Notes: generated from the sequence alone by a model not told the origin. A stretch of 64,000 bases of DNA from Acidimicrobiales bacterium (GCA_050015255.1 JBEKBT010000003.1:2593-66592); one strand, 5' to 3'; counted from the stretch's first letter, positions 4,280 through 64,000 are shown. Translations and numbers: made by a program.

Positions 4280-4349
4280 GTCGACCTCCTAGGTGTGCCG
4301 GTGGCATTTCCACCGCCACGCTTGCCTACACAGTGTCCGCGGGCGGATG

Positions 4350-5219: not shown

Positions 5220-5243
5220 GGCTGGTCACGCTAACGGCACAGG

Positions 5244-5262
5244 CGAGCAACGAGGTTGCTCG
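5244..5262. promoter_or_regulatory. perfect 8-bp inverted repeat (CGAGCAAC-GAG-GTTGCTCG) in the mca/pspA divergent intergenic region
   Basis: Read directly from the sequence. It lies 42 nt upstream of the pspA ATG (5304) and 25 nt from the mca start (5219). It is a candidate operator; no binding protein is known. Confidence 0.35.
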
Positions 5263-5303
5263 ACAGGCCTTATGCTGGGATTAAGAAATCAGAGGGAGCA
5301 CAT

Positions 5304-6182
5304 ATGGGTGTGATGAAGCGCCTGACGAACATCGTCCAGGCCAAGGCAAACAAGGTTCTCGACAAGGCCGAGGACCCCCGTGAGACGCTTGATCTCTCTT
5401 ATGAGAAACAGATCGAGCAACTCCAACAGGTAAAGCGCGGGCTCGCCGATGTCGCCACGGCCAAAAAGCGCATCGAGCTCCAGGCTCAGCAGCTGCAGCA
5501 GGCGGCCGCCAAGCTTCAGAACCAGGCACGTCAGGCACTCACGCAAAATCGCGAGGACCTGGCCACCGAGGCTCTCACCCGGCGCTCCGGGATCGCTACT
5601 CAGCTCGAGGGCCTGAAGACCCAGCATGATCAACTGGCACAACAGCAGGAGCGACTCGAGGCGACCACCCAGCAGCTCCAGGCGCGCGTCGAGGCCTTCC
5701 GCACCCAGAAGGAGACGCTGAAAGCCTCCTACACGGCCGCCCAGGCGCAGACGAAGATCGGCGAGGCGGTCTCAGGCATCTCGGAGTCGATGAGCGACAC
5801 CGGCCTCGCGATGCAGCGGGCCCAGGACAAGATCGCCCAGATGCAGGCACGAGCTAGCGCAGTGGACGAGCTTCTCGCCTCGGGCACACTCACGGACCTG
5901 TCCGGGTCGTCCGACCCCATTCAGGCGGAACTCGACAGGACGGCCGCCTCGGGGGACGTGCAGCTGCAACTCGCTCAGATGAAGAGCCAGCTCAACCAGC
6001 CCGCCACCGCACCGAGCGGTGAGCTCGGCGCGGGCAATGCCCCAGCGGGAGCCTCCGACGAGCCGGTCGACGGAGAGGTCGTGCCGGACCAGCCGTCGGC
6101 TGCGGCGGCACCGGCAGCTCCCCCAGCTCCCCCAGCTCCCGCGGACCCCTTCAGCTTGGACGACGCGGGGGCCGGGTCATGA
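5304..6182 (+). CDS. pspA: PspA/IM30/Vipp1-family membrane-stress protein with an Ala/Pro-rich tail
   Basis: ATG at 5304 preceded by AGAGGGAG. MKRLTNIVQAKANKVLDKAEDPRETLDLSYEKQ... is the canonical PspA N-terminus, and the body is a long coiled coil. Confidence 0.9.
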   Translation: MGVMKRLTNIVQAKANKVLDKAEDPRETLDLSYEKQIEQLQQVKRGLADVATAKKRIELQAQQLQQAAAKLQNQARQALTQNREDLATEALTRRSGIATQLEGLKTQHDQLAQQQERLEATTQQLQARVEAFRTQKETLKASYTAAQAQTKIGEAVSGISESMSDTGLAMQRAQDKIAQMQARASAVDELLASGTLTDLSGSSDPIQAELDRTAASGDVQLQLAQMKSQLNQPATAPSGELGAGNAPAGASDEPVDGEVVPDQPSAAAAPAAPPAPPAPADPFSLDDAGAGS

Positions 6183-6457
6183 TCGTCCGTATACTGGGAG
6201 AAGGCCAGTTCGAGCTCGAAGAAAGTCAGGTCGCCTCGCTGGAAACTCTTGACAAGCAACTGTTGGCCGCCCTCGAAGCCGATGACGAGCCGACTTTCCA
6301 CGAGGTGCTCAGCCGGTTGGTTGAAAAAGTTCGGACGGAGGGAGACCCGGTCACGCCGGATCGTTTCGTGCCGTCCGATCTGGTGGTGCCGTCCGAAAAC
6401 GCGTCCCTCGCCGAGCTGCGCGACTTTCTCGCATCAGAGGACGCCGGGGAGTCTTGA
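6179..6457 (+). CDS. PspA-associated small protein (PspAA-like)
   Basis: 92 aa acidic protein (MIVRILGEGQFELEE...). ATGA overlap with the pspA stop and TTGA overlap with the htpX start. The family name is from memory of published Psp-neighbourhood analyses. Confidence 0.65.
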   Translation: MIVRILGEGQFELEESQVASLETLDKQLLAALEADDEPTFHEVLSRLVEKVRTEGDPVTPDRFVPSDLVVPSENASLAELRDFLASEDAGES

Positions 6458-7413
6458 GCCAGTTGTCGACACGTACTCGTTTTCCTGCTGATCGCGGACT
6501 CACGGCCCGCATGATGCTGACAGTCTTCCTGCTGGGGCTGCTTTACGCCGTTTTCGTCACGGTGCTCTTCCTGGTCGGGGTCAAGCTCGTCTTCATCCTC
6601 GTCATCGCCTTCGCGCTGCTCTTCGTCCAGTACTTCTATTCGGACCGGATCGCGTTGTACTCGATGAAGGGCAAGATCGTCACCCGCGAGCAGGCCCCCC
6701 AGCTGCACGGGGTGGTCGACCGCCTCTGCGCGATGGCCGACATGCCCAAGCCCCGAGTCGCGATCGCGGACGTCGACATGCCGAACGCGTTCGCGACCGG
6801 TCGCGACCAGAAGCACGCCGTCCTCTGTGTCACGACGGGCATCCTGCGACGCCTGGACGAGCCCGAGCTCGAGGCCGTGCTGGCCCACGAGCTGTCTCAC
6901 GTCGCGCATCGCGACGTCGCCGTGATGACCATCGCCAGCTTTCTCGGGATCCTGGCCGGCTTGCTCACCCGCGTGCTCCTCTACGCCGGGCTGTTCGGCG
7001 GCTTCGGCGGGGGAGGCAACAGGGGTCGAAGCGGCGGAGGGGGCATGGGCGGAGGCGGTCAGTTGGCCATTATCGAGCTGGGAATGCTCCTTTTCTCCGC
7101 AGTGATCTACGCCATCAGCTTCCTCCTCATCCGCACCCTCTCCCGTTACCGGGAGCTGGCGGCGGACCGGTCAGGGGCGATCCTCATCGGCCAGCCCCGG
7201 TTGTTAGCTCAAGCGCTCGTAAAAGTGACAGGTGAGATGTCGCGCATCCCCTCCCGCGACCTGCGGTCGGCGGAGCACTTCAACGCCTTCTTCTTCGCTC
7301 CCGCCTTCGCCAAGGGGACCAGCCTCTCGACACTGTTCTCGACCCACCCCACCCTCGAGCGCCGCCTGCAGCAGCTGACCCAGCTCGAGGCCCAGATGGG
7401 CCGCGCGGCGTGA
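6454..7413 (+). CDS. htpX: HtpX-type M48 zinc metalloprotease (membrane)
   Basis: HELSHVAHRD zinc motif, NAFATG, a C-terminal STHPTLERR motif, 4 hydrophobic segments and a Gly-rich insert (GGFGGGGNRGRSGGGGMGGGG). Confidence 0.9.
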   Translation: MSQLSTRTRFPADRGLTARMMLTVFLLGLLYAVFVTVLFLVGVKLVFILVIAFALLFVQYFYSDRIALYSMKGKIVTREQAPQLHGVVDRLCAMADMPKPRVAIADVDMPNAFATGRDQKHAVLCVTTGILRRLDEPELEAVLAHELSHVAHRDVAVMTIASFLGILAGLLTRVLLYAGLFGGFGGGGNRGRSGGGGMGGGGQLAIIELGMLLFSAVIYAISFLLIRTLSRYRELAADRSGAILIGQPRLLAQALVKVTGEMSRIPSRDLRSAEHFNAFFFAPAFAKGTSLSTLFSTHPTLERRLQQLTQLEAQMGRAA

Positions 7414-8018
7414 AGCTGTTCGACGTCCTCCTGGGTCGGACCAAGCCTGCCCAGCCCGACCTCGACCATCTCTTCGGACTCCCGGGCGCTCAGATCACAC
7501 TCGAGGCCTCTCTCGGCCTGCGCCCCACAGGCCAGGCTGGAGTCTGCTTCAAGCCGGCCACGGGACAGGAGTTCGCGCAGACGGCCACAGAGGTAGAGCA
7601 GCTGCTCGACCTCGGCGAGGGCGTGAAGATCCACGAGGAATCCGATTCCTACGGGTACCGGTGGGCCGTGATCGAGGACGACGACTTCGGCGATCTCATC
7701 AACGAGGTCCATGTCGTCAACACGACGCTCGAGGACCATGGCTGGGGACCGCAGCTTCTGTGCTCGGTCTTCGGTTTCGCACCGATCCCAGGCGGGGCAT
7801 CCGACCCCGCGGCGGCAACCGGCGCGCCCAAAGTGGCCGGGACCTACCTCGTCTACCTCTACAAGCGGGGCACTTTCTACCCGTTCGTCCCGCTCGCGGC
7901 CGCCGAGAAACGCGACTCGGAACGCGAGCGCCTGCTGAACGTGACCTTGGCCACCGACCTCGCGATGGAGCCCGACCTCGAGCGCTGGTTCCCTCTGTGG
8001 GGGCTGCCCGTCCACTGA
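7410..8018 (+). CDS. conserved hypothetical protein, PspA-operon member (PspAB-like)
   Basis: 202 aa. GTGA overlap with the htpX stop. Protein-like composition (YGYRWAVIEDDDFGDLINEVHVVNTTLEDHGWGPQLLCSVF). The family name is recalled, not verified. Confidence 0.55.
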   Translation: MKLFDVLLGRTKPAQPDLDHLFGLPGAQITLEASLGLRPTGQAGVCFKPATGQEFAQTATEVEQLLDLGEGVKIHEESDSYGYRWAVIEDDDFGDLINEVHVVNTTLEDHGWGPQLLCSVFGFAPIPGGASDPAAATGAPKVAGTYLVYLYKRGTFYPFVPLAAAEKRDSERERLLNVTLATDLAMEPDLERWFPLWGLPVH

Positions 8019-41182: not shown

Positions 41183-42217
41183 GTGACGCTGCCAACCGCA
41201 ACCTCTCACGGCCTCCCCGGAGAGTCCGTGATTCGCCGGCGCCAGGGGCCCGCGACCCGTCGCCTCAGGCTCGCGTTCGTCGCGGGCACGCTCGTGCTCG
41301 GTGTCGCCGGCACCGCCGGCATCGTGCAGTACGCGCGGACCTACTGGCTCTACCGCGGCTTCAGCGCGCCGCGCAACCCGGCCACGGTTGTCAGCCGCGG
41401 GGGCAAGCGCGTCGAGCGGGTCAAGGTGGGTCGAGGCACACAGGAGGTGATCTACGTTCGAAGTGCGGCCATCGGCAACCGGAGCGAGGCCGTCTACGTG
41501 TACTTGCCGCCGGGCTACTTCCACCACCCGAAAGAGCGGTACCCCGTCTACTACGCGCTGCACGGCAGCCCCGGCGAGGCGATCGACTTCGACCGGGTCC
41601 TCGACATGGGGGTGGCCGAGGACGTCCTGATCGCCGAGCACAAGATCCGCCCGATGATCATCGTCAGCCCGACCGGGGCTCCGTCGCCCTTTGCCGACGA
41701 CGAGTGGGCGAACGGGGTGCGACGCGGGCAGGACTGGGCGACCTACGTCTCGCGTGACGTCGTCAGGGCGATCGACCGTCGCTTCCGGACGATCCGGAAA
41801 GGGTCGGACCGTGCGATCGCCGGTCTCTCCGAAGGTGGCTACGGAGCACTCAACATCGCCATCCACAACCCTGGTGAGTTCCGTGTCGTCGAGAGCTGGT
41901 CCGGCTACATGCTGGCTGACAAGGTGACCGCCGTGTGGGGGGCCCATCCCTCGGCGTCCTTGCTCGCCTACAACAGTCCTCTGCTGCAGGTGAGGCACGT
42001 CGCTCGCGAGTTGCGACGTGACCAGTCGTACTTCTGGTTCTACTGCGGCAGCGGTGACACGCTCGCCACACAGAACGTCCTTTTCGCCAGAGCGCTCCAC
42101 AAACTGGCGATCCCTCACAAGTTCCAGGTCCGCCCCGGAGGCCATTCGTGGAAGTTGTGGCGTCCGATGGTCAACAGTGCGCTCATCGTCGCATCGGAGC
42201 ACTTCGCCGGTGGCTGA
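41183..42217 (+). CDS. membrane-anchored or secreted esterase-family alpha/beta hydrolase (esterase D / PF00756-like)
   Basis: GTG start. N-terminal TM/signal segment (LRLAFVAGTLVLGVAGTAG), YVYLPPGY...YPVYYALHG, and nucleophile elbow GLSEGGYGAL. Confidence 0.7.
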   Translation: MTLPTATSHGLPGESVIRRRQGPATRRLRLAFVAGTLVLGVAGTAGIVQYARTYWLYRGFSAPRNPATVVSRGGKRVERVKVGRGTQEVIYVRSAAIGNRSEAVYVYLPPGYFHHPKERYPVYYALHGSPGEAIDFDRVLDMGVAEDVLIAEHKIRPMIIVSPTGAPSPFADDEWANGVRRGQDWATYVSRDVVRAIDRRFRTIRKGSDRAIAGLSEGGYGALNIAIHNPGEFRVVESWSGYMLADKVTAVWGAHPSASLLAYNSPLLQVRHVARELRRDQSYFWFYCGSGDTLATQNVLFARALHKLAIPHKFQVRPGGHSWKLWRPMVNSALIVASEHFAGG

Positions 42218-44483
42218 CCCCCTCGCCCCGAGGTCCGTCCTGCTGAAGACGGTGCGGGCGGTGGCATTGCCCATCGCCGTGCCGATCGTGATGCTGGTCA
42301 CCACCGGCTGTCTGTACTGGGCGCGGGCCGCGGTGACAGGGGTTCCGGGCCCGCGGGTCGCCGACGCGCTCCCGTTGGACGAGCTGGCCGGACACGGGTC
42401 CATCCCCCTTCTCGTCTACGTGGCGAGCTATCTCCTCGTCGGTTGCCTGCTCGGTCTGTTGGCGAAGTGGCTGGGAACCGACCGGTTGACGGCAGGGATC
42501 GCTCTGGCAGCAGGGGCGGGAGTCGTCACCTTCGGCCTCGATTCGCTCTCACTGTTCATCGTGCGCCAGACGGGCTACGGGCAGGCGCTGACCGCAGCAG
42601 GTCACCTGCAAACGGTCTACCTCACCGCCCTGGCCGTCGGAATCGGTGGGGCCCTGCTCGGTCGCGAGCGCGGGGTCCGTGCCCGGATCACGACCGTGTT
42701 GGCCTGGGCGGTCGGCCTTGCAGGCCTGCTCGACCTGGTCTCGGCCATCGCCCCTCGCTTCACGGACCGCCTGCAGGTGCTCGACAGCCTCGTCACCACC
42801 ACCGTGCCTCCCGTCGCCAATGCCCTCGTCGTGCCGGTCGGAGTCGTCCTGTTGTTCAGCGCACGACGCCTCGCAAGGGGGAGCCGCCGTGCCTGGCGAC
42901 TCGCCGTCGCGTTGCTCGCCGCCTCCTCCGTGCTGCACCTGTTGAAAGGCCTCGACTACGAAGAGGCGATCGCGACGGGCCTGCTCGCCCTTGCCCTCGT
43001 CGCCAAACGGCGGGACTTCTCCGCCCCCGGCAGCCCTGAAGGGCAGCCAAGAGCGCTGTTGCGCCTCGTCATGGCGCTGGCCGTGGCTTTCGTCTATGGC
43101 TTCTTCGCCCTCTTCGTGAACCGGACGGCCTCAGGCCTGCCCTTCGACTTCGTCGCAGGCGTGCGGGGTGCCGCTCGGGCCATGGTCGGTCTGGCGCCCC
43201 GCAACGGCCAGTACCTCAACGGCGACTTCGCCGCCTGGTTCTCCTGGTCGGTCGTGTCGATCGTCGCGATCGGTGTCGGATGGTCAGTCGCGGCGTGGGT
43301 CGCTCCCTGGCGCGATCTGCTCTCGAGCGATGCGCTGCGGCGAAACAGGGCGTGTGAGCTCGTACGGCAGTGGGGCACGGACTCCTTGGCGTCTTTTTCC
43401 CTGCGCCACGACAAGTCGCACCTCATCTTCTCGGTCACGGACGACGAACCAGGCAAGGAGCCAGGCGGTGAGCCGGCGGGGGAGGTCCTCTTCGCCTATC
43501 GAGTCGTTCGGGGAGTGGCGCTCCTCACCGGCGATCCGATCGGTCCACCGGCCGCCGTCGGTCCCGCCATGGAAAGATTCGTGGCGGAGGCACACCGGCG
43601 GGGATGGTACGTCGCCTTGCTCGGAGCCTCCGAGCGGTACCTCGATGTGTACCGCGCCGCCGGCCTGAAGGCGCTCTATCACGGCGACGAGGCCGTCGTG
43701 AACGTCCCGGCTTTCTCACTCGAGGGTGGTGCGATGCGAACGGTACGTCAGGCCGTGCACCGGGTGGAGCGCTGGGGCTACCGCTCCGAGGTGGTCTTCG
43801 TCGGCGACGTCTCCCCCGAGCTCCGCTCAGAGCTCCTGGCCGTGGAGCTCGACTGGCTAAAGGGCCGTCGCCGCACTGGTTTTGTCATGCAGCTCGACGA
43901 CCTGTTCTCCCTCGGCGGCCACGACGCCCTGTTCGTGGTCGGGCGCTCCCCCGAGGGGCGAGTCGGCGGCTTCCTCCATGCGGCTGTCTGTGGCGCCAGC
44001 GCCTCGCTGTCGCTCTCGTCGGTGCCGCGACGAGACGACACGCCGAACGGCTTGGCGGCCTGGCTCATCACCGAGACCATCCGCTGGGCCGACGCGCACA
44101 GCTTCGAGAGCCTTTCGCTCAACTTCGCACCGTTCGCCGGCCTGCTCCGCGACGACGCCGGGCTGTCGGCGCTGCAGCGCCTCGAGCGGGAGGCACTTCT
44201 CGTCCTCAAGCGGCGGCTGGAGCTCCAGCTGGACAACCTCAGCATGTTCAACCGCAAGTTCAGTCCCACATACCAACGCCGCTACGTGGTCTACGAGCGG
44301 CGTTCGGACCTTCCCCGGGTGGCCATAACCGCCATGGCCGCGGAGGGGTACCTGCCCTTCTCCGCCCTGGCCCGGGGAAGAAACTGGGACCGGCGACCAG
44401 CCGGTACGTGCCGGGACGAGGTGCCCTTCCCGTCCGAGCTCGACCTCAAAGAGCCGCGGTCCGAGGAATTGCTGTCTGGATGA
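42210..44483 (+). CDS. MprF-like aminoacyl-phosphatidylglycerol synthase (N-terminal polytopic domain + C-terminal DUF2156/LPG-synthase domain)
   Basis: The GTG at 42210 overlaps the esterase stop by 8 nt. The N-terminal half has about 8-10 TM segments. C-terminal motifs: LLTGDPIGP, MRTVRQAVHRVER, GFVMQL, LNFAPF and NRKFSPTYQRRYVVYE. Confidence 0.8.
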   Translation: MADPLAPRSVLLKTVRAVALPIAVPIVMLVTTGCLYWARAAVTGVPGPRVADALPLDELAGHGSIPLLVYVASYLLVGCLLGLLAKWLGTDRLTAGIALAAGAGVVTFGLDSLSLFIVRQTGYGQALTAAGHLQTVYLTALAVGIGGALLGRERGVRARITTVLAWAVGLAGLLDLVSAIAPRFTDRLQVLDSLVTTTVPPVANALVVPVGVVLLFSARRLARGSRRAWRLAVALLAASSVLHLLKGLDYEEAIATGLLALALVAKRRDFSAPGSPEGQPRALLRLVMALAVAFVYGFFALFVNRTASGLPFDFVAGVRGAARAMVGLAPRNGQYLNGDFAAWFSWSVVSIVAIGVGWSVAAWVAPWRDLLSSDALRRNRACELVRQWGTDSLASFSLRHDKSHLIFSVTDDEPGKEPGGEPAGEVLFAYRVVRGVALLTGDPIGPPAAVGPAMERFVAEAHRRGWYVALLGASERYLDVYRAAGLKALYHGDEAVVNVPAFSLEGGAMRTVRQAVHRVERWGYRSEVVFVGDVSPELRSELLAVELDWLKGRRRTGFVMQLDDLFSLGGHDALFVVGRSPEGRVGGFLHAAVCGASASLSLSSVPRRDDTPNGLAAWLITETIRWADAHSFESLSLNFAPFAGLLRDDAGLSALQRLEREALLVLKRRLELQLDNLSMFNRKFSPTYQRRYVVYERRSDLPRVAITAMAAEGYLPFSALARGRNWDRRPAGTCRDEVPFPSELDLKEPRSEELLSG

Positions 44484-49273: not shown

Positions 49274-50430
49274 CAGGAGGTGGCCTCGATCAGGGAACGG
49301 AACTCCTCGAACAGGTAGCGGGCATCGTGTGGGCCAGGGCCTGCCTCGGGGTGGTACTGCACGCCGAACGCCGCCAGATGGTCGCAGCGGATGCCCTCGA
49401 CGACACCATCGTTCAAGTTGACATGGGTCACCCGAGTGGCGGTGGCGCCTCTGTCGGGCAGGGAGGCCGCTTCGACGGCGTAGTTGTGGTTCTGGCTCGT
49501 GATCTCGACCCGGCCCGTGTCCAGCCGCCGAACGGGGTGGTTGCCCCCGTGGTGCCCGAAGGCAAGCTTGAAGGTTCGAGCCCCGAGCGCCGCGCCGAGC
49601 AGCTGGTGGCCGAGGCAGATGCCGAATACGGGCACCTTCCCGAGGAGCTCGCAGATCGTGCCGACCAGCGTTCCCAATGCAGCGGGGTCGCCGGGCCCGT
49701 TGGACAAGAGCACGCCGTCGGGCTCCAGTTCCAGGGTCCTCGCGGCCGGGAACGAGGCCGGGACGACTGTGATGCTGGCGAGTTTGCCGAGGGATCGCAG
49801 CATGGTCTCTTTCACGCCGAAGTCGTAGGCCACCACCCGAAGCCTCCCCGAGCCTCGCTCGTAAGGCGTCCCGGTTGTCACGCCCGAGACGAGGTCGCGC
49901 CCTGTCGTGCCCGGCTCTGCCGCCGCGGCCGCGCGGAGCTGGGACTCGTCGGCGGTACCGAAGGCGCAGCCCAGGGCGCCGACCTCACGCAGGTGCCTCG
50001 TGAGCCTGCGCGTGTCGACACCTGATATCCCAGGAACACTGTTTCGGACAAGGAAGTCCTCCAGCGACCCGGCGGCGCGCCATGACGACGGCCGCGACGT
50101 TAGATCGCGCACCACGATGCCCCGGCACCACGGGCGGCGAGCCTCGTCGTCGGACGGGCTCACGCCGTAGTTGCCGATGTGGGGATAGGTGAAGGCGACG
50201 ACCTGCCCGGCGTAGCTCGGGTCTGTGACTACCTCCTGGTAGCCGCTGAGCACGGTGTTGAACACGACCTCTCCGTGAGCCAGGCCCCCTGGCGGCGGTG
50301 CCCCGACGGCCTCACCTTCGAACACCTCCCCATCGGCGAGAACCAGCAGCGCCCTGGAGCGCTCCCTGTCGGTGCGGCTCCATCGGCCGGAATCGTCGGT
50401 GCCGCCGTTTGGGTCAGTCCGTGTTGGCAA
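49273..50430 (-). CDS. carA: carbamoyl-phosphate synthase small (glutaminase) subunit
   Basis: [13 protein letters not shown]..., VTDPSYAGQ, and the GATase triad region GICLGHQLL...HNY. The only plausible start is the TTG at 50430 (17-nt overlap with the upstream gene), so the start is uncertain. The stop shares one nucleotide with the carB start. Confidence 0.85.
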
Positions 50431-50980
50431 TTGCGATCCATCCCGCCCAACGATTTGCTTCCCTCCCGAGGCGGACGTTGTCCATGCCCATGCCGGTGAG
50501 CCACACGTCTGGTGCCTCAAAGCCGTACATGGCCAGATCACACACAATAGGTGGCTTCTTCAGCTTCTTCACCAGCACAATACGCTCAACCTGCAGGGCG
50601 CCATATCCGTACAGATGCCGCTCGGTGAAATCGGTGGTGCCGCCTCCGTCGACAAGGTCGTCGAGCAGAACGACGTGCCGGTTCGTCAGCTCCCTGTAAT
50701 CAGGGGGAAGGTCGGTAACAAGCCGAGGCTGGCCACCCTCGCGGCTTGAGCCATAGCGGCTGACGATCATGGACTGAACATTCGGGTGGAAATAAGGATC
50801 ATGATGCTGGATCGCCCGCATCAACTTTGCGGTGAAAGGCTGGGCGCCATTGAGCAAACTTACGAAGAGGGTGTCTGTACCCTTATAGTTGCGCGTGATG
50901 TCCACTGCCATCTCGGCTATCCGAGCATCGACCTCAGACTCGGTGTAGAGGATCTCTTTGTACAGAGGCGTCTCGCTCAT
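50414..50980 (-). CDS. type I phosphoribosyltransferase (HGPRT-like)
   Basis: 188 aa. PRPP loop VVLLDDLVDGGGT, VSRYGSS...G, and GMGMDN near the C-terminus. Clearly lower GC by eye than carAB. Confidence 0.75.
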   Translation of the reverse strand: MSETPLYKEILYTESEVDARIAEMAVDITRNYKGTDTLFVSLLNGAQPFTAKLMRAIQHHDPYFHPNVQSMIVSRYGSSREGGQPRLVTDLPPDYRELTNRHVVLLDDLVDGGGTTDFTERHLYGYGALQVERIVLVKKLKKPPIVCDLAMYGFEAPDVWLTGMGMDNVRLGREANRWAGWIAIANTD

Positions 50981-51063
50981 ACTTGGTTCTCCACTTCGGG
51001 CACGTCACTCCCCACCTGGCGGGATCTCGACCGTTCTGTCCTGAGTGCTGGCAACATTAGGCA

Positions 51064-55930: not shown

Positions 55931-56345
55931 TCACCGCCCGGCCGATGCCGTAGAGCGAGCCGAGACTTCGGCAACCGCGCCAGCGGCCGCCTTCACCGGC
56001 GGCATCACGTCGACACCGAGGTGCAAGAGCCAGTAGAGGCCACTCGCCACGATCAGGCCAAGGATCCAGGAGATGTCCCCGCCCCGAGGTGGGAGACCAT
56101 CGGCCCGGTGTAGAAGGTCGTGCTCATGAACGGGATCTCGACCCCGATCGCGACCAGGTAGGCGACCATCGTGCGCCAGTCGAGCCGGCCGTAGGTCCCG
56201 TCCGGGGTGAAGATCGAGTCGATGTCGTACTGCTCCTTGCGCACGAAGTAGAAGTCCGTGAGGTTGATCGCCGTCCACGGGATCAAGAAGTAGGCACGAG
56301 CGGTGCTCGATCTGCAGGCTGCTGGTGTAGTTCTGCTGAGCGTCC
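55931..56345 (-). pseudogene. 3' remnant of an NCS1 (nucleobase/hydantoin/allantoin-type) permease gene, frameshifted
   Basis: Frame A (ORF 56053..56286): FLIPWTAINLTDFYFVRKEQYDIDSIF...RLDWRTMVAYLVAIGVEIPFMSTTFYTGPMVSHLG. Frame B (ORF 55931..56404): GGDISWILGLIVASGLYWLLH. Together these resemble the last ~110 aa of NCS1 transporters. About 350 N-terminal codons are missing. Confidence 0.5.
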
Positions 56346-56610
56346 ATCACACACCGCCTCCTTACTTCGACGCTGGACGCGGCTAGGCAGGGGGCTGGAT
56401 ACACATATTCGCCCGCGGGCCTACCGCCGGGTAAATGGTCGAGGGTCCTGTGTGTCCCGGCATCTCACCGCTACTGGGGGCCGAGGGACCTTCGCCGCTA
56501 GATGAGTAATCGCAACGGTTCACACGTGCATGCTCGTTCTACCAGATCGCGGCTTTCGGCACAAGAAGACACCGGAGCCCGACGAGGGCGTCTTGGCGGC
56601 CTCTGTAGCG

Positions 56611-56629
56611 TTATCCACAGGCTGTGGAT
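56611..56629. promoter_or_regulatory. TTATCCACA (perfect E. coli-type DnaA-box 9-mer) forming a 7-bp palindrome ATCCACA-GGC-TGTGGAT
   Basis: Read directly from the sequence. It lies in a ~580-nt apparently non-coding, lower-GC stretch about 300 nt upstream of the M48 protease gene. Confidence 0.3.
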
Positions 56630-56923
56630 GAAGCCTCAGCACGCCGTTGCTGCCAGTCCCTGCCGGCTTGTGCAAAGACAGACGACCGCCCGATAGTGCT
56701 ACCTGCTATTTCAACCCAGCCGGCAGGTCGCGATATCACCTCGAGACGGGAGCACAGCACAGCCGCAGCCATCGCCGGCCAAGACGCCACGCGACAGCGC
56801 GCGCGACGGCCCCGGGGGCGCAGGAGACGGCTCGAGCTTGGTTCGCGAAAGGTGGCCGGCGCGGACCTCACCTGGACAGCCGCTCCGGAGTCGGTGCGCC
56901 TCCCATGCCGTAGGATTCGGCGC

Positions 56924-57862
56924 GTGTACACCCAGATAACCAGCAACAAACGCCGAAGCGTCATCTTGATCTGCCTGTTTTTCCTAGTCTGGGTGGCCAT
57001 CGGAGCAGCCTGCGGCTTCATTTTCGATGCCGTCTCTGCGCCGGTCAACGACGGCTCGAGACCGGTCCTGACCGGCATGGCGATCTGCGGTTTCCTGGCC
57101 GTGTGCGGGATCCTCTATTCCTGGAACTCCGGAGCCGGGCTGGTACTCCGGGTCTCAGGGGCCGTGCCGGCCGACCCAGCCCAGTACCCGCAGCTGCATG
57201 ACATCGTGGAGGCCCTGGCCATCGGCGACGGGATCCCCAAGCCCGCCGTCTATGTGATCAACGACCCCTCGCCCAACGCCTTCGCCACCGGAATCAGCCC
57301 GGACAAGGCAGCCATAACCTTCACGACCGGGCTACTGGCCATAATGAACCGCGAGGAACTGGAGGGCGTGGCCAGCCACGAGATAAGTCACATCAAGAAT
57401 CACGACATCCGTCTCCTGCTGCTGGTGGGCGCCATGGTCGGCCTGGCAGCAATGCTGGCCAGCATCCTGTGGAGGAGCGCCTTCTATGCCGGAGGCGGGC
57501 GCGGCAACAACAGGGGCAATGCGATCGTGCTCGTTGTCTTGGCCGCTGCCGCCATGCTCGCATTGGTGGGCTTCATCTTGGGCCCACTTACTCGCCTGGC
57601 GCTCTCACGCCGGCGCGAGTCGTTGGCCGATGTCAGCGGTGTGGAGCTGACCCGTAACCCAGCAGGGCTGTTGAGCGCGCTCAAGAAACTGCAGCAGAAC
57701 GACAAGCCGTTCAAGAAGATGAACCATGCCACCGCTGCGATGTGCATCGACGACCCGCTGCAGCACCACGATGCCTGGTACCACCACCTCTACGACACCC
57801 ACCCTCCCATCGAGGAGCGGATCGCCACGCTCGAGAAACTCGCCTCGGGCCAGTCGGTCTGA
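56924..57862 (+). CDS. M48-family zinc metalloprotease (second HtpX-like paralogue)
   Basis: GTG at 56924 (VYTQITSNKRRSVILICLFF...). PNAFATG, HEISHIKNHD and THPPIEERI. Lower GC than the window average. Confidence 0.85.
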   Translation: MYTQITSNKRRSVILICLFFLVWVAIGAACGFIFDAVSAPVNDGSRPVLTGMAICGFLAVCGILYSWNSGAGLVLRVSGAVPADPAQYPQLHDIVEALAIGDGIPKPAVYVINDPSPNAFATGISPDKAAITFTTGLLAIMNREELEGVASHEISHIKNHDIRLLLLVGAMVGLAAMLASILWRSAFYAGGGRGNNRGNAIVLVVLAAAAMLALVGFILGPLTRLALSRRRESLADVSGVELTRNPAGLLSALKKLQQNDKPFKKMNHATAAMCIDDPLQHHDAWYHHLYDTHPPIEERIATLEKLASGQSV

Positions 57863-57887
57863 CCGGCCTGCCAGCCCGTCGGCGATC

Positions 57888-58556
57888 TCAGCTGGCCTGT
57901 GGAGGTCCCCCGGAACCAACGGCCGGCGGGGGCCCCTCGGTGCCACCGGCAGGCGGCGGGCCCGAGGATGCCGGGCCGGCTGCACCTGGGCCAGCACCTG
58001 GAAAGCTCACCTGAGGCACGGAGCGGCTTTCTTCGTCGGTGGCGAAGTAAGCCACAGGCTTGAAACCGAACGGTCCTGCGATCAAGTTGCGGGGAAAGGT
58101 CTGCAGAGCGATGTTGTAGTCCCGGGCACTCGTGTTGTAGTAGCGGCGGGCGTACTCGATCTTGTCCTCGGTGGCAGTCAGCGTCTCTTGCAGTTGTAGG
58201 AAGCTCTCGACCGCCCGCAGCTGGGGGTAGTTCTCTGCGACGGCGAACAACGAGCGCAGCGTCCCCGTCAGGGCGTTCTCGGCAGGGGCGATCTTGCTCG
58301 GGTCGCCCGTTGCACCCGCCGCGACTGCGTTCGCCCGGGCCTGGGTGACCGCCTCGAAAGTCCCCTGCTCGTGGGTGGCGTAACCCTGCACGGTCGACAC
58401 CAGATTGGGAATGAGATCGTGGCGGCGTTTCAGCTCGATGTCGATCTCGGACCACGCCTCCTGGGTCCGATTGCGCTTCTTGACGAGGTCGTTGTAGGCG
58501 GCCCACAGGCCGAGGGCGAGAAGTACGACGACGATGACGACGATCAGCACAACCAT
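57888..58556 (-). CDS. LemA-family membrane protein with a Gly/Pro-rich tail
   Basis: ATG at 58556 (TM helix MVVLIVVIVVVLLALGLWAAYN). EIDIELKRRHDLIPNLV, AENYPQLRA and RRYYNTSARDYN are canonical LemA motifs. Confidence 0.85.
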   Translation of the reverse strand: MVVLIVVIVVVLLALGLWAAYNDLVKKRNRTQEAWSEIDIELKRRHDLIPNLVSTVQGYATHEQGTFEAVTQARANAVAAGATGDPSKIAPAENALTGTLRSLFAVAENYPQLRAVESFLQLQETLTATEDKIEYARRYYNTSARDYNIALQTFPRNLIAGPFGFKPVAYFATDEESRSVPQVSFPGAGPGAAGPASSGPPPAGGTEGPPPAVGSGGPPQAS

Positions 58557-58808
58557 TGTGGAGGTGGATCTCCTCGGAGCTTGGCTAGCGTGAACTCTAT
58601 CGGCTGTGCCGCCGCGCGGCCACGGGGTGGACCTCCGACCGCCCCGACGGCCATGGGCCAGCGCGCCCGTGCCGTGAGCAGCCCCTCTCCACATCCCAGG
58701 CCAAGTCGGTCAGTACTCCTTTCAATCTGAGCGGGGTGAGATTCTCAGAGTTCGCAGTTGCGCTGCGACCCGGCGGCACTGCGAGCGGAGACGCACCCTG
58801 TCCCGCAG

Positions 58809-59792
58809 CTAGAGCGACACAGCAGCGCCGCTGCCGAGCGCTTCAAGGGTCGCTGTGCGACCCAGTTCGATCATTTCCGAAGCCCGGTGAAAATCGATCG
58901 TGCGACAGGCGTCCTTGGAGATCGTTATGAGAACATCGGGTGGATTGGAGGCCAACCGGTGCCTGGTGAGCTCGCTCTGCATCGTTTCGAGCGACTGGTT
59001 GACCACGTCGAACTTGCTGAGACGGGCAGGCAGGGACTCGACTGCTGCGCCGGCTGGCGACGTGGCCTCGTCACCCACCGGAACCGAGCTTGATGCTCCA
59101 CCGAAACGGCTCATCACCGACCGGACCAAGTCGCGGTCGATCAGATGAGCCGGGCCTTTGCGGAAGCGCTCGATCCATTCTTCGATCGGACGCTCTTCAG
59201 CGGTCTCCCCGGCAGAACCTCCGTGGGGCATTCCACTGCGCTCTCCGCCGAGATCGATAGCGATTGTCACATCGGCCGCGGACGAGGCGACCGGCGCGAG
59301 CGGAACCGGGTCCATCACGCCACCGTCGACGAGTAGTCGGCCGTTCAACATCACCGGCGTGAACACGCCCGGGATGGCGATCGACGCCCGCATCGCCACC
59401 TCCAGCGGCCCTCGTTGGAACCACACGGCCTTGCGCGCGAACAGATCGGTGGCCACGGCGGTGAAGGTCACTGGAAGGTCCTCGATCAAGACATCGCCAA
59501 CGAGTTCGTGCACATGGGCGAAGATCTTCTCGGCCCTGATCACACCGGGCGCGGAGAGCGAGGGATCCAAGAGACGCAGCACGTCGACCTGGGTGAGGCC
59601 ACAAATCCAGTCCGTGTACTCGTGGAGCTTTCCCGCGGCATAGAGCCCGCCGACCAGGGCGCCCATCGAGGCGCCGGAGACAGCGACAATCTCGATGCCT
59701 CGCTCCTCGAGCACCTGGATTGCGCCAATGTGCGCGTAACCGCGGGCACCTCCGCTCCCCAGCGTCAGCGCGGCGCGTGTTCTGTGCTCCAT
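58809..59792 (-). CDS. patatin-like phospholipase (RssA-like)
   Basis: LGSGGARGYAHIGAIQVLEE (oxyanion GGxR), GASMGA (GxSxG) and VDGGVMDPVP (catalytic Asp). Confidence 0.85.
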   Translation of the reverse strand: MEHRTRAALTLGSGGARGYAHIGAIQVLEERGIEIVAVSGASMGALVGGLYAAGKLHEYTDWICGLTQVDVLRLLDPSLSAPGVIRAEKIFAHVHELVGDVLIEDLPVTFTAVATDLFARKAVWFQRGPLEVAMRASIAIPGVFTPVMLNGRLLVDGGVMDPVPLAPVASSAADVTIAIDLGGERSGMPHGGSAGETAEERPIEEWIERFRKGPAHLIDRDLVRSVMSRFGGASSSVPVGDEATSPAGAAVESLPARLSKFDVVNQSLETMQSELTRHRLASNPPDVLITISKDACRTIDFHRASEMIELGRTATLEALGSGAAVSL

Positions 59793-60072
59793 TCATCCCT
59801 CCTAGGTACGCGGGCCACTGCCACCGTCACGAAATGTCACTTGACCCGGTCGCTGTGCGAGACGCAGCCATGGTAATCCACCGAAATCGGGTTTTATCCC
59901 CCTGTTGTCCTCTAGGAAGGCACAATCTGACCCGCTTATGATGGGGCGGAGAGGTCTAGTGGGAGCGGTCCCGGTCGGACGGAAAACGCTTCCACCAGCG
60001 CAGCCAGCAACGGGGACCGGCTAGACGGCGGTGGTCCCCTGCTGGCTGTGGCCGATGTGACATTGTTGCTTT

Positions 60073-60702
60073 GTGGCCGACATGCTCCTCGAGGACGTGC
60101 GCTCCGCCGAGTTACGGCGCCCGGACGAGCGCACGGTGGCCTGGAGCGAGTGGGGACCCAGCTGACGGTGATCCCTTGCCGCGGCCTGCCTGGGCGCGGC
60201 ATCGGGGGCAGCGGCGGGGGCCCTCGTGTGCTGGCTCTGGCCCCTCGCCATCCCGACCGGTCAAAGCAGCGACAGTGGTCGTCGGCGCGGCACCGTTGAC
60301 CGAGGACGAGATGGGCGGTCTCATCGGCTCAACGCCGAGTCCCACTGGCTGATCCCGGTCGGAGACCTGGATGGGTTCCGACGGCTGCTAGAGCGGCTCC
60401 CTGCGAGTCTGCTCAAGGACCCGATCGGCGGTTTCCTGGCCGCCATGGACAAAGCCCCAGAAACAGACCGAGTTGTCATGGGAGACCCGGACTGGCAGGC
60501 GAGGCATGCTCTGGCGACTCGGGAGGCGCTTCGGGCTGGTGTCGACGGTTGGTTCGACGAGGCGATCGCTCTGGAGAGGGCTTGGAGCGAGATCGACCTG
60601 AGCGCGGTTGGCACGTCCCTGACCTGGTGGCTCGCCGGCAGCGACGCCAACGTCCCGCTGTCAGCGGCCCACAATCCGATCCCTCCGGGCCCGCCTCCTT
60701 AG
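60073..60702 (+). pseudogene. heavily degraded alpha/beta hydrolase gene (at least 4 frame changes plus an internal deletion)
   Basis: Pieces in three frames: VADMLLEDVRSAELRRPDERTVAWSEWGP (stop at 60163); DGDPL...; GLPGRGIGGSGGGPRVLALAPRHPDR (nucleophile elbow, frame of ORF 60048..60299); VKAATVVVGAAPLTEDEMGGLIG (frame of ORF 60071..60352); LNAESHWLIPVGDLDG...WWLAGSDANVPLSAAH (frame of ORF 60226..60702). The total span of ~210 codons compares with ~280-300 expected. Confidence 0.5.
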
Positions 60703-60744
60703 GCCACGAGCTGGCGACCCCTCATCGCCGCCACCGGAGCTGCC

Positions 60745-63216
60745 TCAGAGATCTTCCAGGATCTGGTGCAGTCTCAGCGTGACCTCTCCATAGTCCATAT
60801 GTCGATCAAATCTAACCGGGTCCCCAATGCGGACCGTGACCTTACTATGGCGCTTCGGCCACTTCGAGTGCAGGGGCACCGTCCCGAATAGACCGATCGT
60901 CTTCAGCGGTACCACGGGAGCATCCAGGTCCACGGCGAGCAGCCCTATGCCCGATTTGAACGGCTGCAGGACACCATCGGTGCTCAAGCGGCCCTCGGGC
61001 GCGATAACGACGCTCCAACCTTCATCCACGAGAGTCCCAACATACTCCATACTGGGCATATAAGGCTCAGAACGGGCGAAACCAAAGCCAGCGAAGCAGA
61101 GCCTGATGATAAAGGCCAGCACTTTATGCTGCCGCATCACATCGTCCGCCGCCGCGACTGTCAAACGCTTCCGGATACGTCTTGGTAACGCCTGATACAC
61201 CGCTGGCCCGTCGAAGTCATCGCTGTGGTTGAAGATGTACAAAGCCGGTGTGGCCAGATCGTCGAGCTTGTCGCGCCCTTCGACACTCATTCTGACCCAG
61301 ATTCCCACTATCGACCGCACAACCACTTCGCGAGTGGCGTCCCCCAACAGTCGCACCCAACGCCGGTACGGCCAGGAGGGCCGAGGAATGGGCCGCTCGG
61401 CCGGGCCGCCAGCGGCCACCAACCGCCTCAAGTCCCCCACGGTCGTGCTCTTGGTCACGTCCTCTTCCGGGACGCTGATGCCCAGTTGATCCTCAATCAA
61501 GGTGACAACCGTCAGCCTTCGCAGCGAGTCGAGGCCTAGGTCGGCCAATCGATCCGACTCCTTGATCTCTTTTCGTGGCTCGTCCAAGCTTTCCCGAATG
61601 ATGTTGTCCAGTACCTCTTCCTCCGGGGCCCTCTCCGGCGCCTTCGGCTCCTCCTCCTGACCGGTCTGATTCGCCCATTGCTGAACCTTCTTCCGGTCCG
61701 TCTTCCGCATTCGGTTGAGAGGAAATTTCGCGTCCGGCCAACGACGCCAGGCACTTATGTGCTGAAACGACTCCAACTGGCCGTTGATTGCGTCAATTGC
61801 CTGGCTGATCTCGCTATCGGAGCCGTCAGAAATGACGACGGCCACGACCTCCTCGCCATCGGGTCGCCTAACGCCAACGACGCAGACCGCAGAAAGAATC
61901 GGATAGTTGGCGGCGACAAGCTCGATGTCCTCAGGAAAGACCTTGAGGCCGCTGCTCAACACGATGGCGAACTTGAGCCGCCCCTCAATGTACAACCAGC
62001 CATCTCGCAACTGCCCAGCATCACCCGTTCTGAACCAGCCGTCCGCGGTAAACGCGTCACGGGAGGCTGTCGGACTCTGCCAGTACTCCTTGAAGACGGT
62101 GGGCCCTTTGGCTTGGATCTCCCCGTCCTCACCAATACGCAGGTCCACGTTGTCGAGCGCACGGCCCGGCGAGTCGAGACGGCGCTCGTGTAAGGGGTTC
62201 ATCGTCAAAATGGGCCCGGTCTCTGTGAGACCGTAACCCTGCAGCGCCCGGACCCCCATGCTCTCCCACGCCCTGCCGACCTCGACAGGAATCGGCGCCC
62301 CTCCGGTGATGACGAGGTCCAACCTGCGCCCCAGCTGTGAGTGCACACTCCTGAACAGTTGCCGACGGAGCGCGAACGGCAGCACAGCGGCCAACTTCGA
62401 AGCCGTCGCCAGAGCCCTGGCCTTGCCGTCAGCCGCGGCGACTTGTTGTATTCGTTTGAGCAGTAGAACCAGGAGCTGCGGAACGGCAAGGATCGTGGTT
62501 ATGTGGTATTCCTGCAGGGCGCGGCCCATAGCGATCGGCGAGACGCTCGGCACATAGAAGATACTGGCGCCGTGCGCCAGAGGTGCGACCGTGCCGCCCG
62601 TTATCTCGTACATGTGGGAAAGCGGCAACACGGACAGGAACCGCCAGTCTGGGCCGACGTTCAACACCCGAAGTGCGGCCTCGGCGTCGGCCAAGATGTT
62701 CTTCTGGCTCAGGACGACGCCCTTGGGTTCGGCAGTGGTACCTGAAGTGAACACGATCACCGCTGGGCAGTCACCGCTCAACTCAGTGGCCGGGGCCGTG
62801 GCCGGATACTCGGCAATACGCTCGTCAAGCTCGTCGAGCAAGTTGACGATGGGAAGGTTGTCGAGCTCGGGGTGCATATGCTGGTTCCGAAAGACCAGCT
62901 TCGGTCCGGTCTCGTCGATGAACCTCAGCGTCGTTGCCGGATTGCTGCCTGCGTCGATCGGCACCAGAATCGCACCAAGAAGCTGGGTGCCCAGAAACAG
63001 TTCTACCCAAGCGGGCGAGTTGTTGGCGACGACTGCGACTCGGTCTCCCGGCTGAACATCACGAGCCAGGAGGAAGTTCGCCGTTTGATAGGTCCGTTGC
63101 TGTAGCCCGCGATAGTTGAGCCTTTCAATCTGGAGGAATGGCCGTATAGTCATCGCCAGCCGTTCGTCGTGATTCGCAAAACTGGCTACAAAGTCGCCGA
63201 AATGGCGGCTGGTCAT
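60745..63216 (-). CDS. tri-domain protein: fatty-acid adenylating (ANL) domain + acyl carrier domain + PlsC/LPLAT-type glycerolipid acyltransferase domain (823 aa)
   Basis: ANL domain, aa 1-515: VFTSGTTAEPKG, QGYGLTETG, WFRTGDAG, GRLKFAIVLSSGLKVFPEDIE. Carrier domain, aa ~535-600: LADLGLDS(564)LRRL, with the Ser codon at 61525-61527. LPLAT domain, aa ~615-823: FNHSDDFD (NHx4D), FGFARS, IAPEGRLS, VVPL. Lower GC than the window average. Confidence 0.85.
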   Translation of the reverse strand: MTSRHFGDFVASFANHDERLAMTIRPFLQIERLNYRGLQQRTYQTANFLLARDVQPGDRVAVVANNSPAWVELFLGTQLLGAILVPIDAGSNPATTLRFIDETGPKLVFRNQHMHPELDNLPIVNLLDELDERIAEYPATAPATELSGDCPAVIVFTSGTTAEPKGVVLSQKNILADAEAALRVLNVGPDWRFLSVLPLSHMYEITGGTVAPLAHGASIFYVPSVSPIAMGRALQEYHITTILAVPQLLVLLLKRIQQVAAADGKARALATASKLAAVLPFALRRQLFRSVHSQLGRRLDLVITGGAPIPVEVGRAWESMGVRALQGYGLTETGPILTMNPLHERRLDSPGRALDNVDLRIGEDGEIQAKGPTVFKEYWQSPTASRDAFTADGWFRTGDAGQLRDGWLYIEGRLKFAIVLSSGLKVFPEDIELVAANYPILSAVCVVGVRRPDGEEVVAVVISDGSDSEISQAIDAINGQLESFQHISAWRRWPDAKFPLNRMRKTDRKKVQQWANQTGQEEEPKAPERAPEEEVLDNIIRESLDEPRKEIKESDRLADLGLDSLRRLTVVTLIEDQLGISVPEEDVTKSTTVGDLRRLVAAGGPAERPIPRPSWPYRRWVRLLGDATREVVVRSIVGIWVRMSVEGRDKLDDLATPALYIFNHSDDFDGPAVYQALPRRIRKRLTVAAADDVMRQHKVLAFIIRLCFAGFGFARSEPYMPSMEYVGTLVDEGWSVVIAPEGRLSTDGVLQPFKSGIGLLAVDLDAPVVPLKTIGLFGTVPLHSKWPKRHSKVTVRIGDPVRFDRHMDYGEVTLRLHQILEDL

Positions 63217-63527
63217 GTGCCCATCCTGTAGGCGACGGCGACCGCGTAGTCACCGTGATGAGAAATCGACACGGCAAACTCTTGTGCTCCGATTCGGGCG
63301 TGGGGCTTGCCAGAGGCGTCGTGACTGATAACAATGTCAGTCCACTTGTCGGGTGCAGTTGCAGCAGCCTTCACGACCGCTTCTTTGGCCGCCCATAATC
63401 CCGCCAGATGTTCGAGCTGCTGGCCGTTTATCTCCGATGGGCTGAAGGCCCTCTGCATCAATTTGCCGGCGCTGACCTCGAGTCGTTCTCGAAATTCGGG
63501 TATGAAGACCAGGTCAATTCCAACCAT
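63213..63527 (-). CDS. AcpS-type holo-(acyl carrier protein) synthase / 4'-phosphopantetheinyl transferase (104 aa)
   Basis: MVGIDLVFIPEF..., AFSPSE, LAGLWAAKEAVVKA and VSISHHGDYAVAVA follow the AcpS pattern. The stop overlaps the start of the tri-domain gene (ATGA at 63213-63216). Confidence 0.8.
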   Translation of the reverse strand: MVGIDLVFIPEFRERLEVSAGKLMQRAFSPSEINGQQLEHLAGLWAAKEAVVKAAATAPDKWTDIVISHDASGKPHARIGAQEFAVSISHHGDYAVAVAYRMGT

Positions 63528-63895
63528 GCGCCATTCTATGCCGTACTCGGTCTCGGGGATCCAGGAGGTTCGGATGCCTCCGAGAAGGACGCCCCCGGTC
63601 GAAGCCGGGCGCGACGCCTTCGACTGAGCGCAGAGGGAAAGCGCCAGTCCGGGAGGATGCAGCCCACCAGGTCTCCGATGCGGTCCACGATTGCCGGCGA
63701 TGCCTCGAGGGCCTCCTGGGCTTCGGAAAGGTCGTCGTTGTTCCCCGAATGTTCCCGGCCCTGGCTCTGCGCAGGACCGGCCTTTTCAGCGGGCTTTCAA
63801 AGTCCCGCCCTAGCTCCGCCCTGCAGACAGAGGCTCCAAAGCTTCGGGACGATACGCGAAGCCGACGCTCCCCGGCTTCGTGGGAGCATGAAGAC

Positions 63896-64000
63896 AATGA
63901 GGTTGCGCGCCGTCGTGCCCGTCGTCTTGGTCCTGACTCTCGCCGCGTGCGGCAGTTCCCCGACAGTCTCGACCAAGTCGGTCCGCTTCCCGTTCATGGC
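63896..64000 (+). CDS. putative lipoprotein, N-terminal fragment (continues beyond the window)
   Basis: Hand translation: (MKT)MRLRAVVPVVLVLTLAACGSSPTVSTKSVRFPFM. This has a signal peptide with lipobox LAAC. GGGAG lies 10 nt upstream of the ATG at 63896; there is an alternative ATG at 63887. Confidence 0.5.

Follow-up and report, generated by a model that had tools for sequence, protein, structure and literature searches.

What do the genes at the right-hand end of this Acidimicrobiales contig do, and do they do it together? The window, by which we mean the whole 64,000-nucleotide stretch analysed (GCA_050015255.1, JBEKBT010000003.1:2593-66592), ends in 7.6 kb (positions 56346-64000) that the original prediction described as a lower-GC group of phospholipid-turnover and envelope-stress genes: an M48 protease, LemA, a patatin, a dead hydrolase, an acylation module and a lipoprotein. 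All of them are present. The same prediction joined them into a deacylation/reacylation locus for membrane repair or remodelling. The part of that proposal that stands is the acylation module and, to a lesser degree, its link to the patatin; the hydrolase, M48 and LemA genes are bystanders. Our preferred answer, which in our judgement has an even chance of being right, is that the right end is a mosaic of units. Its coherent part would be a two-gene cassette, acpS followed by a tri-domain gene, for a self-contained Aas-like enzyme that re-acylates lysolipids and that the patatin could feed.

Lysolipids arise in a cell from its own lipases, from lipoprotein maturation and from foreign phospholipases. 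To our knowledge, what is understood of their bacterial re-acylation comes almost wholly from the Gram-negative LplT/Aas pair, and how monoderm actinobacteria handle lysolipids is largely open. The tri-domain family described here is a widespread and testable candidate for this task, with activation, carrier and transfer in one polypeptide and often a putative lipid transporter beside it. With its fused carrier the enzyme would also suit studies of how acyl chains pass from an ANL domain to a PlsC-type acyltransferase.

The tri-domain enzyme and its AcpS-type transferase

The cassette consists of two genes, the stop codon of acpS overlapping the start codon of the tri-domain gene by 4 bp:

60745..63216, minus strand: tri-domain enzyme of 823 amino acids, with Pfam domains ANL, then PP-binding, then a PlsC/LPLAT acyltransferase
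63213..63527, minus strand: acpS, an AcpS-type 4'-phosphopantetheinyl transferase of 104 amino acids (Pfam ACPS, TIGR00556)

Pfam places AMP-binding at residues 17-379 of the tri-domain protein (E-value 9e-67), PP-binding at 536-598 and Acyltransferase at 644-771, and the ANL domain has a further C-terminal subdomain beyond the AMP-binding match. The residues expected of three working domains are all in place. We judged motif invariance in an alignment of 20 tri-domain homologs (51-78% identity), in which the ANL P-loop TSGTTAxPKG at 157-166 (TSGTTAEPKG in the window) and the catalytic lysine K505, the carrier serine S564 within GLDSL, and the acyltransferase HX4D motif H664x4D669 (H664SDDFD669) together with P740EG are all invariant. 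No transmembrane segment was found in the tri-domain protein, and its closest solved ANL structure is the peripheral-membrane protein FadD13. The acpS product scores 52.7 bits against PF01648 (cut-off 25) and 70.1 bits against TIGR00556 (cut-off 45.35), which identifies an AcpS-type phosphopantetheinyl transferase, and it stays under the AcpS equivalog cut-offs of NCBIfam.

Selection on these genes can be read from a close relative. L091, the metagenome contig Ga0326727_10000145 (304 kb), is 95-97% identical to the window, is syntenic with it from hutU to past acpS, and serves as our reference throughout. Compared between the window and L091, the tri-domain gene has a ratio of non-synonymous to synonymous substitution (dN/dS) of 0.14, acpS one of 0.12 and the patatin gene one of 0.21, with LemA at 0.18 and hutU at 0.10. 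All of these genes are under purifying selection.

The tri-domain family is large, with more than 3,400 database matches at E<=1e-10. The 120 best matches listed share, nearly without exception, this three-domain make-up and a length of about 820 amino acids, and the named sources are Acidimicrobiales or Actinomycetota metagenome-assembled genomes (MAGs). Scanning contigs with a full-length alignment picked up the generic ANL motif DGWF[RK]TGD and returned mostly ordinary acyl-CoA synthetases, so that only L001 and the distant loci L002-L012 were useful from it; the metagenome scan then used a C-terminal-only alignment. Several homologs (locus L001 and proteins P0025, P0053 and P0062) carry the public labels Candidatus Saccharimonadales or Saccharibacteria. 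The L001 locus has a GC content of about 0.62 and an Acidimicrobiales-type MFS partner, and these labels probably reflect mis-binned contigs.

In E. coli, Aas combines a 2-acyl-glycerophosphoethanolamine acyltransferase with an acyl-acyl carrier protein (ACP) synthetase, and works with LplT, an MFS lysophospholipid flippase (PMC11416262); Aas is reported to be a peripheral protein (PMC11416262). The window enzyme resembles it in having both a fatty-acid-activating ANL domain and a PlsC-type acyltransferase domain, each detectably homologous to its counterpart, the ANL domain at 30% identity with an E-value of 5e-26 and the acyltransferase block with an E-value of 2e-7. Searched alone, the acyltransferase domain finds the Aas-type 'acyl-[ACP]--phospholipid O-acyltransferase' models best, at E 9e-12 and 2e-10 against 1e-7 for AGPAT, although at 43.5 and 39.3 bits these best matches lie far under the cut-offs. 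The two enzymes also share the lack of a transmembrane helix and, as the domains suggest, acyl transfer through an ACP phosphopantetheine thioester. Many tri-domain relatives, like Aas, lie in an operon with an MFS transporter. There are differences as well. The domain order here is ANL-ACP-LPLAT, whereas that of Aas is LPLAT-ANL; the ACP is fused in cis, whereas Aas recruits ACP from the cell pool; the enzyme here often has its own AcpS-type transferase; and the host is a Gram-positive-type actinobacterium of the Acidimicrobiales, which has no outer membrane.

Base composition and neighbours of the cassette

The right end was correctly described as low in GC. The interval 56346-64000 has a GC content of 0.635, compared with 0.677 in positions 1-56345, and all 487 equal-sized windows elsewhere in the stretch lie above it (minimum 0.658). 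Its genes are also lower than those of the rest of the window, both in GC (Mann-Whitney, p=0.02) and in GC at third codon positions, GC3 (p=0.012). The proposed boundary at about 56.3 kb fares less well. In 2-kb sliding windows GC is 0.65-0.72 as far as about 56 kb and 0.61-0.66 over the remainder, but the strongest single change point is at 60750, with a GC of 0.610 to its right. Between 56.3 and 60.7 kb the sequence is only mildly low in GC, by about 1 standard deviation (sd), and acpS and the tri-domain gene (60.75-63.5 kb, about 61% GC) carry most of the drop. Per-gene values are 0.607 for the tri-domain gene, 0.568 for acpS, 0.643 for M48, 0.644 for the patatin and 0.667 for LemA, against a mean of 0.672 (sd 0.031) over the remaining 38 gene-like open reading frames (ORFs) of the window. 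From these figures the clear outliers are acpS and the tri-domain gene only; the GC drop delimits the acpS/tri-domain cassette, not a 7.6-kb locus. Elsewhere in the window GC drops under 0.625 in a single 1-kb stretch, which holds a phosphoribosyltransferase-domain gene (50414-51004, minus strand, GC 0.572).

The neighbours of the tri-domain gene in relatives were scored by tblastn in 68 metagenome loci, found with the C-terminal-specific probe, and in further loci from exact-protein look-ups. Collapsing these at 97% identity left 49 clusters, 44 of which have at least 1.3 kb of downstream sequence. What follows the tri-domain gene in these 44 is:

Next same-strand gene, one orthologous MFS transporter: 15 of 44 clusters
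Next same-strand gene, a flippase-like protein (PF03706; TIGR00374): 7 of 44 clusters
Next same-strand gene, a patatin: 3 of 44 clusters
Next gene, M48/LemA: 1 of 44 clusters
Next gene, other: 18 of 44 clusters

With TIGR00374 the flippase-like partner scores 76 bits (cut-off 43), which places it in the MprF flippase-domain family. The distance from the tri-domain gene to either membrane partner is at most about 170 bp, with one case of overlap, the operon spacing to the MFS gene being 7-170 bp in relatives. In L089 (8878-15951) and L090, 57% identical, the tri-domain/MFS pair stands among housekeeping genes in the order holA / tri-domain / MFS / rpsT / lepA, with a GC content equal to that of its flanks. 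Upstream, 19 of the 33 non-redundant clusters that could be evaluated have an AcpS gene immediately before the tri-domain gene.

In a neighbour-joining tree the type of downstream partner tracks the tri-domain phylogeny. Flippase-like partners are seen in basal branches and one crown clade, MFS partners form one large clade, and the window falls in a third clade, at least 70% identical, that is without a membrane partner. Within this third clade the window, L091, L086 and L081 make up a monophyletic subclade in which the patatin gene is adjacent. At L081 (78% identical) the gap between patatin and tri-domain gene is 182 bp and both flanks are unlike those of the window; since the pair was kept while both flanks changed, it stayed together through rearrangement.

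The composition of the cassette also varies with phylogenetic depth. In every clade at least 70% identical, the tri-domain gene, with a GC content of 0.58-0.615, lies within flanks of 0.64-0.67; these flanks vary from clade to clade and are entirely different among window/L091, L081, L083 and L084. In clades 50-62% identical, its GC follows that of the genome, from 0.41 to 0.67. This pattern misfits a purely gene-intrinsic bias. Because the deficit recurs at differing loci in the clades at least 70% identical and not in deeper ones, the cassette has probably moved horizontally within the Acidimicrobiales. Low GC alone is weak evidence for such a transfer, and a search of the cassette borders for tRNA genes, Rfam matches, integrases and meaningful flanking repeats found none; since tRNA, integrase or repeat borders are missing, we infer the transfer rather than observe it.

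A proposed acylation cycle and its alternatives

From domain chemistry and gene context we infer the following mechanism, its substrate, direction of lipid flow and patatin coupling included. The translationally coupled AcpS-type transferase would turn the internal carrier into its holo form at Ser564. The FadD13-like ANL domain would then adenylate a free fatty acid and load it onto the carrier in cis, and the C-terminal PlsC-type domain would hand the acyl chain to a lyso-glycerolipid at the membrane's cytoplasmic face. In effect, the enzyme would be a self-contained Aas with a permuted domain order and its own ACP. In many relatives the MFS or MprF-type flippase-like partner may move the lipid across the membrane. 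The clade of the window would have lost this partner, and one subclade, the window included, has a downstream cytoplasmic patatin instead. That patatin could supply both lysolipid and fatty acid, giving a Lands-type cycle of deacylation and reacylation.

58809..59792, minus strand: patatin-like phospholipase, cytoplasmic, RssA/PlpD-like (Pfam Patatin and intact motifs)

The patatin assignment is sound at the family level (PF01734, 72.3 bits, cut-off 27.7); against the NCBIfam RssA model it scores 201 bits, under the cut-off of 272, and its best solved structure is PlpD (E 1e-32). It has the oxyanion motif GGARG14, the nucleophile motif GASMG40 and the catalytic aspartate in DGG156, and no signal peptide or transmembrane helix was found in it. 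It is possible to see a likeness to the eukaryotic Lands cycle of PLA2, acyl-CoA synthetase and LPLAT, in that a patatin with an intact Ser-Asp pair adjoins an enzyme for activation and lysolipid acylation; the carrier here is a fused ACP rather than CoA, however, and the linkage is seen in one bacterial subclade. The patatin is widespread in Acidimicrobiales, at 60-82% identity in many MAGs, and stands beside an LPLAT-type acyltransferase in three contexts: the clade of the window, the 78% identical clade, and L160. At L160 (471-2393) a patatin ortholog 82% identical to that of the window has directly downstream of it, in the same orientation, the gene for a stand-alone PlsC-type acyltransferase of 262 amino acids, which is 26% identical to the tri-domain acyltransferase domain and not orthologous to it. 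A squalene-hopene cyclase gene and a DegV gene lie nearby at L160. We also considered the patatin as a CBASS-like defence effector (CBASS, cyclic oligonucleotide-based antiphage signalling system) and rejected this, PADLOC having matched no gene of the region.

Several observations weigh against this proposal. The acyl acceptor cannot be read from sequence, and the whole tri-domain protein reaches only 147/138 bits against the NCBIfam Aas models (PRK08043, PRK06814, PRK08633), whose cut-offs are 1349/1221. The analogy with lplT-aas holds for the homology of both catalytic domains to Aas and for the presence of MFS or flippase-like partners; it does not extend to LplT itself, since the MFS partner gives no NF008397 match (E. 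coli LplT, as a control, scores 579 bits) and a pairwise E-value of 0.12, and in other clades a flippase-like protein replaces the MFS transporter. A flippase-like partner classically exports newly made lipid, as in MprF, which fits biosynthesis as well as repair. No transporter or other membrane partner adjoins the cassette in the window. The acpS gene is a pseudogene in L081/L082 (9747-9989; 78% identical clade), where its N-terminal 31 amino acids are recognisable and the remainder is deleted or frameshifted, and a 35-codon stub in L084 (9897-10004; 71% identical clade); the dedicated transferase is therefore dispensable. As to the patatin, 950 bp and an opposite-strand (pseudo)gene separate it from the tri-domain gene in the window, and therefore the two are probably not co-transcribed. 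Since the patatin-adjacent subclade is monophyletic, the linkage arose once, and three of the four other patatin contexts inspected have no lipid neighbour.

A broader version of the same idea extends beyond the window, and we put it forward tentatively, as rather less probable than not. The acpS/tri-domain cassette with its MFS or flippase-like partner may be an unrecognised lysophospholipid-repair system of Gram-positive-type Actinomycetota, a counterpart of LplT/Aas, which the lineage of the window has rewired through the patatin into a Lands cycle. If this is true, the repair system would differ from LplT/Aas in its cis-fused carrier, its own phosphopantetheinyl transferase and its interchangeable membrane partners, and in the lineage of the window acyl chains would be remodelled from inside by a genuine bacterial Lands cycle.

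Alternatively, the tri-domain enzyme may be biosynthetic: an ElbD-like protein without the reductase, which loads a particular fatty acid onto its own carrier and makes from it a specialised membrane lipid (for example an extra-acylated or head-group-acylated glycerolipid) that the partner exports to the outer leaflet, as MprF does with lysyl-phosphatidylglycerol. Myxococcus xanthus ElbD is a multidomain ether-lipid enzyme with an ACS-ACP-AGPAT-like core and an N-terminal FAR (reductase) domain, and ElbD-like homologues lacking FAR have been reported, uncharacterised, in other phyla (PMC9131029). The window enzyme has this tri-domain core in the identical order. Moreover, we find tri-domain proteins of about 860-925 amino acids, too short for a reductase domain, in Verrucomicrobiota, Acidobacteriota, Nitrospirota and Proteobacteria, and FAAL-like domains fused to lysophospholipid acyltransferases have been described as oddities independent of polyketide synthases and nonribosomal peptide synthetases (PMC8460268). 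The MprF family membership of the flippase-like partner, and a dedicated phosphopantetheinyl transferase of the kind typical of specialised pathways, also fit. Nevertheless, we consider the biosynthetic role unlikely. The ORF has no FAR domain, opening with ANL at residue 17 directly after acpS, and the window has no elbB (HAD), elbC or elbE (NAD-epimerase) neighbour and no evident link to ether lipids. The acyltransferase domain scores higher on Aas-type than on AGPAT-type models. The partner alternates between MFS and flippase-like proteins, and the only characterised MFS pairing with such an enzyme is the lysolipid-importing LplT/Aas. Finally, linkage to a lysolipid-producing patatin in the subclade of the window suits remodelling better than de novo synthesis.

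The comparison with MprF itself has two sides. In seven lineages the gene of a lipid-modifying enzyme is paired with a protein of the MprF flippase-domain family, as in MprF; the partner enzyme here is an acyl-ACP-dependent acyltransferase and not an aminoacyl-tRNA-dependent synthase, however, and the two activities lie on separate polypeptides. The window has, about 17 kb from the cassette, a gene for an 829-amino-acid LPG_synthase_C protein (41994-44483, plus strand), an MprF-like aminoacyl-phosphatidylglycerol synthase, and so a second gene for modifying membrane lipids.

Bystander genes and decayed edges

The remaining genes of the right end are the following:

55934..56362, minus strand: remnant (pseudogene) of an NCS1 (cytosine/purine/allantoin) permease at the left edge, matched to Transp_cyt_pur of L091
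56924..57862, plus strand: HtpX-like M48 zinc metalloprotease of 312 amino acids (Pfam Peptidase_M48, HEISH152, four hydrophobic segments)
57888..58556, minus strand: LemA family protein (Pfam LemA, 188 bits; N-terminal transmembrane helix at residues 1-26)
60073..60675, plus strand, opposite to its neighbours: alpha/beta hydrolase pseudogene (tblastn and nucleotide alignment to L091)
63665..63739, minus strand: remnant of a BTAD/cyclase/AAA_16/TPR regulator (25 amino acids at 88% identity to L091)
63888..64000, plus strand: start of a lipoprotein gene cut off by the window end (95% identical to L091 residues 1-37)

The M48 protease matches Peptidase_M48 (PF01435) at 108.7 bits (E 4e-31), and its best NCBIfam HtpX model scores 285.6 bits, below the cut-off of 355, so that HtpX equivalog cut-offs are not reached. 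It is indeed the second such gene of the window, the first lying at 6325-7413. Homologs of 312-323 amino acids, 75-95% identical, indicate that the 412-amino-acid ORF from 56624 is over-extended and that translation starts near 56924. Against L091 its dN/dS of about 0.52 (11 non-synonymous and 7 synonymous changes) is above that of its neighbours, a difference for which 18 substitutions are too few to interpret. LemA is convergent with it, as predicted, with 25 bp between the two stop codons. Hundreds of MAGs carry the M48 protein at 75-85% identity, and the convergent pair recurs beside unrelated genes in L108, L164 and L165. On these distributions M48/LemA is a self-standing conserved pair, independent of the lipid genes, and a bystander here. 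A 140-bp segment between LemA and the patatin (58642-58781) is absent from L091 and L092 and has no repeat or recognisable feature.

That the alpha/beta hydrolase is wrecked was borne out by alignment to the intact L091 gene. This gene encodes a 299-amino-acid Abhydrolase_1 protein and lies between the genes of the tri-domain enzyme and the patatin, in the orientation opposite to theirs. By tblastn this protein falls on the window as fragments in several frames. The window copy has a +1 frameshift, an internal deletion of about 190 bp, two -1 frameshifts and a 3' deletion of about 115 bp that takes out the catalytic histidine. L086 and L092 have another, larger deletion of about 530 bp; because these lesions differ from those of the window, the hydrolase was lost independently. 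It is restricted to the clade of the window, where three of four near-identical strains have it decayed. The suggestion that it was once a lysophospholipase found no support, its similarities being generic: they are of the COG0596 type and PcaD/BphD-like, with a PDB entry bearing the COG0596 name. Pfam and NCBIfam searches of the translated frames at 59.9-60.7 kb gave no match even at E<=10. A hydrolase gene beside the L161 patatin was considered as the counterpart of the window pseudogene and rejected, its similarity being that of the generic fold only.

Two further genes have been lost at the edges. L091 has an intact permease of 495 amino acids (Transp_cyt_pur) between hutU and M48, which the window matches only at residues 375-495, frameshifted, and weakly at 10-42; compared with L091 and L092, the window has lost about 1030 bp at position 56296. 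Upstream of acpS, L091 has about 3.4 kb of extra sequence (3913-7663) with BTAD, guanylate-cyclase-like, AAA_16 and TPR domains, which would fall between 63664 and 63836 of the window; the region is absent from L086 as well. Loss of the hydrolase, the NCS1 permease and the regulator occurred at strain level, and all three are bystanders. For annotation, the right end is best split into its separate units and the three pseudogenes or deletions marked.

It is quite improbable, in our view, that the whole 7.6-kb stretch forms one co-regulated locus for membrane repair or envelope stress, uniting the HtpX-like protease, LemA, the patatin, a former lysophospholipase and the acylation module. The named genes are adjacent, and their arrangement is syntenic in L091 and L092, but synteny at 95-97% identity has no weight. 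M48 and LemA also lie beside a tri-domain gene in one other lineage only: in L108 (1577-3174) and L155, M48 is 129 bp directly downstream of a 62% identical tri-domain gene, with LemA convergent and the module inverted relative to the window. At L081, moreover, the patatin is followed by a gene for a Bax1-I/YccA-like membrane protein. Set against these, M48 and LemA are core genes whose convergent pairing is kept elsewhere beside unrelated genes, and with genes on both strands and in convergent orientation there can be no single operon. A hydrolase that is confined to one clade and independently inactivated in three of four strains is not needed. In most of their relatives, neither the tri-domain gene nor the patatin is accompanied by the other members; the genes are scattered, an outcome that the original prediction had itself named as counting against its locus.

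That the patatin and tri-domain genes are independent and adjacent by chance, the GC dip being ordinary local fluctuation (through amino-acid composition or low expression) where the chromosome is plastic and decaying, is very improbable: the three strain-level deletions, the lack of mobile-element hallmarks in the Rfam, tRNA and repeat scans, a tri-domain GC3 just about 1 sd under the window mean and the usually unrelated neighbours of the patatin would fit it, but the tri-domain GC deficit at different loci in all clades at least 70% identical and not in deeper ones, the patatin adjacency retained at 78% identity though both flanks changed, the independent patatin/PlsC-type pairing in L160, and the family-wide operons with AcpS and membrane partners, which mark the cassette as a functional unit, all speak against it.

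At the right edge, no Pfam or NCBIfam family was found for the lipoprotein. The L091 protein has 340 amino acids, with a signal peptide and the lipobox LAAC, and the L086 ortholog is alike; the orthologs start MKTMRLRAVVPVVLALTLAAC, which contains the lipobox.

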